Origin: a virus
Lineage: Duplodnaviria > Heunggongvirae > Uroviricota > Caudoviricetes
Virus record (IMG/VR): IMGVR_UViG_2681813429_000002
Reading direction: 5' to 3' (one strand)
Length of the DNA stretch: 23,970 nt
Positions 15,608-17,545 of the stretch are shown here, in pieces; the first letter of the stretch is position 1; the number at the start of each line of letters is the position of its first letter. The position numbers and the translations under genes are program-made. The notes beneath the pieces were generated by a model. It ran no database searches. It had not been told where the DNA came from and saw nothing but the letters and a program-made list of their open reading frames with translations.

Positions 15608-17545
15608 TCAGCCGCCGGACGCACTGCCGTAGTTCACTCCGGTGATCACCGCCACCGCCGCAGTACGGCGACGACGCCAGTTGATCCAGCGCTCCGCACG
15701 GATGGCCACGCTGCCTGTCTGGAACATGGAAACCAGCTCCACCGGGGACGGCGTGGTACTGTCGCCGGTCGGCTCAGACTGCATTTCCAGTGATGCCTCG
15801 CGGGACATATCCACTGCCACGCCGCCGTCATCCGCCAGATAAATATCCGGGGCATTCACCAGCACCAGCTGGTCACCCACGTACTGGGAGACAATCACCG
15901 GCAGCCCCTGGAAGGAGCCACCCAGCAGGGTCATGTCCGGGTATTCCTTCTGACCCAGCGCATTTTTACGCATGGACAGTGCCAGGGCATTGGTGCTGGA
16001 CATCAGCCAGACCGCACCGGTGGGCTGCAGGTTTGCTGCCACAAACTGTCCAAACGCAGCCTCTGCATCCGCATCCGGGTTACCGGTTGATGCCGTGCCC
16101 TTCACATCATGGGTGATGGACGCCGGGGAGACATCTGCCACTGCGGCTTTTTTCGGGTCCACAAAGTCTGTATCCAGACGCGCCACCACCGCTTCCGCCA
16201 GCGCATTACGGACCAGTGCATCAGCAGCCGGACTGGAAAAACGGATCAATTCTTCCGTCAGTACCGCAATGGCCGACACCTTCGCATGACTGAAGGTGAT
16301 GGATTCAAAATCAAACTTCGTCAGGGGTTTTGCCTTACCCTCACCCACCCAGCCGGCAGCACCGCCGGACACCTGGGCGTGCACACGGATATTGAATGGC
16401 ACCTGACGAAGTGCAGGGATCCCGCCCTGACCAAATCGCCCGATAATGGTCTGCGGACGCAGGTAATCAATAAAGTCCTGTGCGTATTCCTGATATTCAG
16501 ACAGGCTGCCTGCCCACTGCGGATCCGTGGTGGTCCCCGCGCCCACTGCCGATTTCAGGACATGATGCAGACGACTGTCATCCGGATACTGACGACGGGC
16601 CACTTCCAGGGCTTCAGATCGGACGCCTTTAGCCGCAGCCAGCGATTTGGCAAAGCGGGCGAAGCCAATCCCCTTATCCAGTTTCTGCTCCACACGGATC
16701 ACCGGCGCAGAAGCCACCGCGGCCACATTCCCGTTACCGGCCTGTTTCACCGGCTGCGCCGTGGCGGCCTTACCGGCTTCCAGTTCACGCAGGCGCTTCA
16801 GGTGCGCATCCACCTGACGGATTTCCGCTGCGGTGTTGTCGTAATGCTCTTCCTCCTCCACATCCAGCGTGCGCCCTTCCTCTGCGGCTTTGGTCATGAC
16901 CTCCTCAAGGGAGGCTGCCAGCGCTGCACGCTTGTTTTCAAAACTTTTAATCTGTTCGCCAATATTCATTATGGTCTTTTCCTTATGAAAAACGGTTGTT
17001 GACTGTGCCGCAGCGCCGGCAGAAGATGCGATTTTCACCACCGGTTTCCGGTTGCCGGACGCGGCAGAAAACGGGCGGTCGTAAGATTTAATGGTCCGGA
17101 TGGTGCATTCCGCATTCGCGGGCACGGTGACGGCAGACACCTCCATCAGTTCCCAGCGCAGAAAATGCAGTCCGCCTCCGTCCAGAAAGGTGTATTCATG
17201 GGGACGGAAGCCCACGGACAGCCCCCTGACCAGCCCGGTCTTAATGGCCGCCCAGACCTCATCCAGCCGGGCAGCCAGTTGCGACGGCATATCCGGTACG
17301 GGCTTCACCAGTGTTGCCGTGATTTCCAGCCCTTCGCTGACCCGGCGCACCGTACACTGCCCCACCGGGCGGGAATGGTCATGCTGCCAGAGAAACGGGA
17401 TCGCACTGCCAAACTCCGCGCCCTCCGGCTCCAGGATGTCACCATCCCGATCCGGAGAAGGCGTTGACGCAATCCCGGTGATCACCCGTTCATCCTCACT
17501 GAAGGATTTCACCGTCAGCAGGGAACAGGCCCGTTTAAGAGTCAC
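15608..17545 (-). CDS. Single ORF fusing an HK97 gp4-type prohead protease, a coiled-coil linker and an HK97-fold major capsid protein (645 aa)
   Basis: N-terminal part has protease motifs (ITGIASTPSPDRDGDILEPEGAEF, PFLWQHD, GLSVGF, AVTVPAN). C-terminal part is capsid-like (DPQWAGSLSEYQEY...GRFGQGG...). Strong SD AGGAGG precedes the ATG at 17543-17545. No stop codon separates the domains. Confidence 0.85.
   Translation of the reverse strand: MTLKRACSLLTVKSFSEDERVITGIASTPSPDRDGDILEPEGAEFGSAIPFLWQHDHSRPVGQCTVRRVSEGLEITATLVKPVPDMPSQLAARLDEVWAAIKTGLVRGLSVGFRPHEYTFLDGGGLHFLRWELMEVSAVTVPANAECTIRTIKSYDRPFSAASGNRKPVVKIASSAGAAAQSTTVFHKEKTIMNIGEQIKSFENKRAALAASLEEVMTKAAEEGRTLDVEEEEHYDNTAAEIRQVDAHLKRLRELEAGKAATAQPVKQAGNGNVAAVASAPVIRVEQKLDKGIGFARFAKSLAAAKGVRSEALEVARRQYPDDSRLHHVLKSAVGAGTTTDPQWAGSLSEYQEYAQDFIDYLRPQTIIGRFGQGGIPALRQVPFNIRVHAQVSGGAAGWVGEGKAKPLTKFDFESITFSHAKVSAIAVLTEELIRFSSPAADALVRNALAEAVVARLDTDFVDPKKAAVADVSPASITHDVKGTASTGNPDADAEAAFGQFVAANLQPTGAVWLMSSTNALALSMRKNALGQKEYPDMTLLGGSFQGLPVIVSQYVGDQLVLVNAPDIYLADDGGVAVDMSREASLEMQSEPTGDSTTPSPVELVSMFQTGSVAIRAERWINWRRRRTAAVAVITGVNYGSASGG

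Follow-up and report, generated by a model that had tools for sequence, protein, structure and literature searches.

A prophage gene joining head protease and major capsid protein carries a conserved candidate internal start for a protease-less capsid protein

The 23,970-nucleotide viral DNA IMGVR_UViG_2681813429_000002 (Caudoviricetes), hereafter called the window in the sense of the whole stretch that was analysed, is the late region of a lambdoid Escherichia coli prophage and is transcribed from the minus strand. It contains an open reading frame (ORF) of 645 residues that joins an S78 prohead protease, a linker, a helical scaffold domain and an HK97-fold major capsid protein in one continuous frame. 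The fusion itself is already known and annotated. Here we propose that this gene is a nested gene with two products. One would be a protein of 69 kDa that comprises protease, scaffold and capsid parts, and the other a protein of 48 kDa with scaffold and capsid parts only, which would be initiated at an internal in-frame ATG. On the basis of the sequence comparisons described below, we assign this reading a probability of roughly 0.78.

The N-terminal part of the protein matches PF04586 Peptidase_S78 (residues 48-152, 34.7 bits against a Pfam gathering score of 21), while it remains below the threshold of the narrower S78 equivalog TIGR01543 (46.5 against 59). The C-terminal part matches PF05065 Phage_capsid (residues 386-635, 53.1 against a Pfam gathering score of 24.2) and the NCBIfam equivalog of HK97-type major capsid proteins, TIGR01554 (residues 204-584, 78.1 against 27.5), and the full-length family PHROG 617, which has 626 profile positions, matches the fused protein from end to end. 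The initial annotation had read the ORF as an HK97 gp4-type protease, a helical region and an HK97-fold capsid protein, and this reading is borne out by the Pfam, NCBIfam and PHROG matches, as well as by the structural model and the fold search. Its coordinates and sequence were also correct, and the minus strand had been left unstated. The N-terminus of the fused protein, MTLKRAC, is kept in homologues. His55 and Ser110 (GLSVGF motif), which we take to be the catalytic residues from general knowledge of the S78 family, are invariant in 55 sequences at 38-54% identity, and the fused protease should therefore be active.

In the AlphaFold model, which was built from 55 diverse homologues (mean predicted local distance difference test score, pLDDT, of 83.6), a compact protease is followed by a disordered linker, two long helices, a flexible segment and the HK97 fold, with the residue limits given in Table 1. 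The HK97-fold domain was matched by Foldseek to the capsid proteins of Bxb1, D3, HK97 and T5, with a probability of 1.00 and E-values of 1e-15 to 1e-10. In a profile match, residues 196-265 align with the N-terminal residues 4-73 of 9gyi_B, the stand-alone major head protein of the capsid-forming phage-inducible chromosomal island (cf-PICI) EcCI2. Because the two-helix region is aligned with the N-terminal ~70 residues of this stand-alone protein, it is, as judged from model and alignment, a scaffold (delta-like) domain and more than a linker. It lies directly N-terminal to the capsid fold and is homologous to the N-termini of stand-alone capsid proteins, in the manner of an HK97-type delta domain. 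The initial annotation had placed the internal ATG inside a single “coiled-coil-like linker”. The helical character of this region holds for the scaffold helices, but the disordered stretch is separate from them, and in the model M193 is located exactly where the disordered linker gives way to the first scaffold helix.

M193 is encoded by the internal in-frame ATG, whose complement lies at 16967-16969 (MNIGEQIKSFENKRAALAASLEEV). This codon is preceded by AAGGA at 16984-16980 and the 10-nt spacer AAAGACCATA, in agreement with the ATG, the motif and the spacing noted initially. Initiation at this codon would produce a protein of 453 residues and 48.2 kDa, as compared to 69.0 kDa for the full protein. 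The site lies in an AT-rich pocket: the 50 nt around it have a GC content of 30%, and the ORF as a whole has one of 60%. It is also predicted to be unstructured, with a folding energy of -3.5 kcal/mol where the gene averages -14.7 kcal/mol (z = 2.7). The two start sites of the window combine different elements: a strong Shine-Dalgarno (SD) sequence with the weaker GTG codon upstream, and a moderate SD sequence with ATG in an open, A-rich context internally. Taken from this single sequence, the evidence for an internal start is weak, and its real weight comes from the conservation across relatives.

Table 1. Coordinates of the fused gene, its predicted parts and its neighbours in the window
Feature	Position	Strand	Remarks
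Order of the late genes		-	lysis genes, HNH endonuclease, small and large terminase (17609-19270), fused ORF (15608-17545), 73-aa ORF, portal (13333-15396), head-tail connectors, tail tube, tape measure, tail tip
Terminator-like hairpin, then T-run	17567..17584	-	GC-rich; in the 63-nt gap between large terminase and fused gene, directly before AGGAGG
SD sequence of the full-length product, AGGAGG	17551..17556	-	5-nt spacer to GTG; anti-SD duplex -10.3 kcal/mol
Full fused ORF	15608..17545	-	645 aa, 69.0 kDa; protease, linker, scaffold domain and major capsid protein
Start codon of fused ORF, GTG	17545-17543	-	
S78 (HK97 gp4-type) prohead serine protease domain	17087..17494	-	residues 18-153; pLDDT >90 over 21-150
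Codon of presumed catalytic His55	17383-17381	-	
Codon of presumed catalytic Ser110	17218-17216	-	
Disordered hypervariable linker	16970..17086	-	residues 154-192; pLDDT <50; carries the putative internal ribosome-binding site; length and sequence differ among homologues
Internal SD candidate, AAGGA	16980..16984	-	10 nt 5′ of internal ATG
Internal in-frame ATG, M193	16967..16969	-	proposed start of a 453-aa, 48.2-kDa scaffold-plus-capsid protein
Scaffold (delta-like) domain	16760..16966	-	residues 194-262; two long helices, 195-222 and 229-262 (AlphaFold model)
Flexible segment between scaffold helices and capsid fold	16670..16759	-	residues 263-292; low pLDDT at 268-279
HK97-fold major capsid protein	15611..16669	-	residues 293-645, 37.4 kDa; PF05065 and TIGR01554 matches
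Stop codon of fused ORF	15608-15610	-	
73-aa ORF	15342..15563	-	between capsid and portal genes; overlaps portal start by 55 nt
Portal ORF	13333..15396	-	687 aa
Tandem repeat in portal C-terminal extension	13406..13809	-	162-nt (54-aa) unit, 2.5 copies, 95% identity

In order to evaluate the internal site across the family, we gathered homologous loci from one genome per species, from IMG/VR and from metagenomes. From these we obtained 128 distinct junction sequences, which cover gamma- and alpha-proteobacteria as well as uncultured phages and extend to protein identities as low as ~45%; 126 of them are single fused ORFs. All 126 fused junctions have an in-frame start codon 4-10 codons 5′ of the conserved EQI motif, which forms the opening of the first scaffold helix; the codon is ATG in 119 cases, GTG in six and TTG in one. 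The exceptions to ATG are themselves start codons beyond what codon usage would provide: all six Val residues at the site are encoded by GTG, which accounts for 19-47% of the Val codons in those genes (joint probability 0.0012), and the sole Leu is encoded by TTG, which accounts for 4.5% of the Leu codons in its gene (probability 0.045). A count by eye in the alignment of 150 cluster representatives (50% identity) gives Met at this position in ~135, Val in ~13 and Leu in one or two. At the sequence level, this spectrum resembles that of bacterial start codons and not that of a structural residue.

The SD candidate upstream of this codon is maintained in a similar way. An anti-SD duplex of -5 kcal/mol or stronger is available at 90.6% of the junction sites, against 16-18% of the other in-frame codons or start codons of the same genes. 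Positions -12 to -9 are 94-98% purine across the 126 junctions, 100 of which contain an exact match of at least 5 nt to the SD consensus, and the spacer measures 5-10 nt in 121. The amino acids encoded by these nucleotides are quite variable: the SD match is translated into 29 different peptides (K-G, Q-E-G, E-E-G, K-E, T-G, E-D and others), and its GG core occurs in two codon registers (58 against 64 sequences). The pattern points to an SD sequence that is conserved as nucleotides, not as amino acids, within a hypervariable linker. Moreover, the RNA around the site tends to be open throughout the family. The mean z of its predicted structure is +1.9, in 75% of the sequences the site ranks within the 10% of windows that have the least structure, and its GC content is 43% against 59%. 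In an unbiased scan of all alignment columns, the M193 site is the strongest start-plus-SD position of the gene, in 93% of the sequences, with a start codon in 100%. An internal in-frame start codon with a putative ribosome-binding site lies inside the protease ORF, in the same arrangement as in the lambda C/Nu3 pair. The candidate start for a ~453-residue product, proposed initially from the window, gains its support from the start codon in 126 of 126 junctions, the nucleotide-level SD sequence, the unstructured AT-rich pocket and the start sites of split relatives. Just 5′ of the SD candidate, many family members also keep the linker motifs PG(A/V)SG and (V/I)xLxPK, which may be autocleavage or capsid-targeting elements.

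Could the conserved Met and its surroundings serve the protein, or the elongating ribosome, instead of initiation? The Met with the adjacent K-G or K-E might form a helix cap or a protease cleavage site, or the SD-like sequence might cause a pause that lets the protease fold before the scaffold emerges. Conserved protein motifs can indeed create look-alikes of an SD sequence with a Met, as they do around residue ~579, and the linker presumably has to be cut by the protease, for which Lys-rich sites would be plausible targets. A role in the protein is difficult to reconcile with the 29 peptides and two codon registers over the SD match, with the varying distance of 4 to 10 codons between the Met and the helix motif, and with the replacement of the Met only by GTG-encoded Val and TTG-encoded Leu, which has no rationale at the protein level. 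Pausing needs no start codon, and it leaves unexplained why the capsid genes of split relatives start at the same site. We consider this explanation very unlikely.

These split relatives provide the second line of evidence for the nested gene. In four loci (L028, L029, L101 and L116), protease and capsid protein are encoded by separate genes, and in each the capsid gene opens with the homologous Met, preceded by an SD sequence of its own. The separation is achieved in different manners. In the Diaphorobacter locus (L028), the stop and start codons overlap as ATGA, while in the Brucella locus (L029) the capsid gene lies in a different frame and is preceded by GGAGG. In L101 (~3080-3100) and L116 (~2145-2165), an in-frame TAA occurs directly, or two codons, before the capsid ATG, so that a single point mutation would turn the split form into a fused one or back. 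Consistently, five stand-alone capsid proteins among the cluster representatives start at positions corresponding to residues 193-196 of the fused protein. As for their capsid parts, most split forms are nearer to fused forms than to each other; that of L029, for example, is ~70% identical to the fused L099 and L100 and 64% identical to the split L116. Since the split forms mostly have fused forms as their nearest relatives, these sequences indicate that one state has changed into the other on more than one occasion, sometimes by a stop codon alone, and the start site of the capsid protein was kept in every case.

The same observations invite the explanation that the internal site is an evolutionary relic. 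The ATG and its SD sequence would then be left over from an ancestral separate capsid gene, only the full-length fusion would be translated, and every subunit would carry a protease until maturation. Fusions could arise easily and inherit the old start, as split relatives exist and some of them (L101 and L116) are one in-frame stop away from fusion; the merely moderate SD sequence of the window would also fit. However, most of the family is fused: this holds for 126 of the 128 distinct junctions, at identities as low as ~45%, and the top 150 cluster representatives (50% identity) also include many fusions of comparable length. A site of no use would be expected to decay in a linker so variable and so rich in indels, whereas the start codon is kept in 126 of 126 junctions and is replaced only by GTG or TTG, the SD sequence is kept through many amino-acid encodings, and the RNA stays unstructured. 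A relic is accordingly an improbable explanation, though somewhat less so than a role in the protein or in elongation.

A third possibility is that the fusion is not a functional gene at all, but the result of a sequencing or assembly error, or of a recent inactivating mutation in a decaying prophage. Prophage regions are often frameshifted, and one homologous locus, from an Arsenophonus endosymbiont (L027), is broken by multiple frameshifts. For the window, the population data speak clearly. Many complete E. coli genomes and phage records contain a 2.3-kb region with 100% identity to the window, which rules out a sequencing artefact; as stated in the initial annotation, no stop intervenes, and there is no frameshift either. 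Of 5426 complete E. coli genomes, 1255 carry the fusion, as do 93 phage records, most of them from Shiga toxin (Stx)-converting phages such as BP-4795, 2851 and YYZ-2008, inducible ones included, and identical or near-identical fused ORFs also occur in many genera. The Stx-phage records annotate the gene as “major head protein/prohead protease”. The presumed catalytic residues and the capsid fold are intact. A recent frameshift or sequencing error was rejected, since the minus strand offers no other long frame and thousands of records contain the identical fused ORF. An artefact or pseudogene is thus effectively refuted.

How would a nested gene of this type operate in head assembly? We infer that both proteins are produced and assemble together, and propose the following model. 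Ribosomes starting at the upstream GTG would synthesize the 69-kDa protein, in which the disordered linker tethers the S78 protease to the scaffold domain and HK97-fold capsid protein. Initiation at the AAGGA-N10-ATG site of M193, on the same mRNA and in the same frame, would yield the 48-kDa protein, which lacks the protease and would be the ordinary scaffold-plus-capsid subunit, equivalent to HK97 gp5. Both forms would then co-assemble into the procapsid, with the scaffold helices and the tethered proteases facing inwards, and the relative strength of the two start sites would set the number of enclosed proteases. Once assembly is complete, the protease would cut away the scaffold domain, the linker and its own domain, so that a capsid protein of ~350 residues remains. 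The maturation cleavage probably occurs within residues 263-292, by analogy with HK97 gp5. Duda and colleagues are said to have found in 2013 that the HK97 protease enters the shell via a non-covalent C-terminal targeting signal. In the proposed system, the covalent tether would take the place of that signal. The steps of co-assembly, orientation and processing are modelled on the established HK97 pathway (PMC10275583 and general background).

Several observations weigh against the nested gene. In the window, the pairing of AAGGA with the anti-SD (-6.2 kcal/mol) is matched or exceeded at 12% of the in-frame positions in the gene and is not significant alone; the SD sequence is moderate, and the 10-nt spacer is at the long end of the usual range. 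The counts across the family are not independent events, because the sequences share a phylogeny. The scan yielded a second peak at residue ~579, in 62% of the sequences, which demonstrates that conserved protein motifs can mimic a start site. This peak was rejected as a start, as invariant D-D-G-G codons and M580 make a look-alike of GGAGG plus ATG (~15800-15830 of the window, minus strand, residues 572-580). The upstream and internal SD sequences show no systematic difference in strength (median -6.6 against -5.6 kcal/mol), both sites being similarly distributed across the family, so the product ratio, which is proposed to set the protease dose, is not predictable from them. Finally, in the searchable literature we found no ribosome profiling (Ribo-seq), N-terminal sequencing or virion proteomics for the fused gene family, and a Salmonella study of N-terminal proteoforms does not mention phage genes.

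The surroundings of the fused gene are well conserved. Wherever the flanks are readable (loci among L003-L190), the order of the large terminase gene (TerL), the fusion, a small ORF and the portal gene is kept: TerL lies upstream and the portal gene downstream in 136 loci, with no locus contradicting it. The small 73-residue ORF matches PHROG 829, whose function is unassigned (E = 4e-39), and is co-conserved 3′ of the fusion in 87 loci. The portal protein carries a C-terminal extension with the tandem repeat listed in Table 1. In E. coli strain 4/4 the portal gene encodes 861 residues, and the annotation of BP-4795 divides it into two ORFs; these differences suggest that the appended repeat varies in copy number. 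Upstream of the fused gene, the hairpin listed in Table 1 might lower transcription or affect how the long form is translated. It matches the consensus and no more: one such hairpin was found, where 2.6 are expected in shuffled sequences. No sigma-70-like internal promoter is present within 15200-17800, which has little bearing on late phage transcription.

The fused gene is carried by about a quarter of complete E. coli genomes and by long-tailed Shiga-toxin phages, and all annotations assign it just one product. Should the internal start be used, most of the capsid protein in these phages would be an unannotated proteoform, the fusion would be a minor, protease-delivering species, and the protease dose per procapsid would be fixed by two competing ribosome-binding sites on one mRNA. 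The nested protease/scaffold principle, known so far from lambda, herpesviruses and one archaeal virus, would extend to a design that includes the capsid protein itself, and two start sites and one stop codon would offer a simple genetic handle on the need for, and the targeting of, the procapsid protease. In practical terms, the proposal bears on genome annotation and on the reading of virion proteomics for these prophages. From the viewpoint of phage assembly, it would be plausible rather than shocking.

Natural “major capsid and protease fusion” proteins have been recognised in actinobacteriophages and Rhodobacter phages, and NCBI curates the family NF045541 (prohead protease/major capsid protein fusion protein). 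The window protein lies outside this family, as it scores 54 bits against a cut-off of 525. Searches of the accessible literature for an internal start in such fusions found none. For the S78-scaffold-capsid fusion, the internal start is neither described in the searchable (open) literature, with key older papers outside that scope, nor annotated in the records examined. As far as the searchable literature shows, the nested internal start therefore appears to be new, while the fusion is known.

Nested head genes are known from other viruses. In lambda, C and Nu3 are nested in-frame genes (Shaw and Murialdo 1980, cited in PMC8508860), and the analogy drawn in the initial annotation is apt. In both cases one frame would give two products with a shared C-terminus, the two products of the fused gene being predicted: the long one contains the head protease, and the short one, from an internal start, is a scaffold protein without protease. 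In contrast to the fused gene, the lambda capsid protein E is encoded by a separate gene and the lambda protease belongs to a different family, whereas here the short product would comprise scaffold and capsid protein together, and the protease is of the S78 type. Herpes simplex virus (HSV) UL26/UL26.5 and gp17/gp17.5 of the archaeal virus HFTV1 likewise pair a long protease-scaffold form with a short in-frame scaffold form that is in excess. In HFTV1, mass spectrometry and ribosome profiling in the presence of an initiation inhibitor demonstrated the short form, the excess of which is 7.8-fold (bioRxiv 10.64898/2026.09.13.751334); the short form of the fused gene is predicted from sequence. 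Unlike the window gene, neither HSV nor HFTV1 includes the capsid protein in these ORFs, and HSV uses a separate promoter for its short form.

HK97 is the closest system in terms of protein families. The fused protein shares with HK97 gp4 and gp5 the S78 protease family, the capsid fold and an N-terminal helical scaffold domain. In HK97, this domain of the capsid protein is removed after assembly (PMC10275583), and by analogy the same probably holds for the fused protein. The two systems differ in that gp4 and gp5 are separate genes, whereas here a subset of the subunits is proposed to carry the protease covalently. The gene order also differs, the portal gene following the capsid gene in the window.

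In architecture, the closest system is the tripartite capsid gene of the Salmonella phage Gifsy-2 (Effantin et al. 2010, cited in PMC12315714), which joins a protease, a central putative scaffold and a capsid protein in one ORF of ~700 residues. The comparison with Salmonella tripartite genes that had been made initially stands for this architecture, but not for the protease type or the capsid family: the Gifsy-2 protease is of the ClpP type (PF00574 CLP_protease) and its capsid protein belongs to PF25209 (Mu gpT-like), while the window protein matches only S78 at its protease domain, with no sequence relationship between the two. Furthermore, the portal gene precedes the capsid gene in Gifsy-2, whereas it follows the fusion in the window. 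The Gifsy-2 gene (L191, NC_010393, 22471-24561) has an in-frame ATG of its own, M221, just after the protease domain, with GAGGAG 8 nt 5′ of it. In its relatives (L192-L271; 31 distinct junctions at 60-100% identity) this Met never varies, and all 31 use GAG for the first Glu, which creates GAGGA 8-9 nt upstream. The case for an internal start is weaker there, because the flanking amino acids are conserved as well. Extending these comparisons, we tentatively suggest a broader picture, to which we give slightly less than even odds. The S78-scaffold-capsid family as a whole may be a nested gene, the main capsid product of which comes from an unannotated internal start. Lineages would switch repeatedly between the split and fused states by one stop codon while the capsid start is kept, and the fusion would serve as an evolvable switch between non-covalent and covalent protease delivery, with the dosage set purely by translation. 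The ClpP-type genes of Gifsy-2 would then represent a convergent solution.

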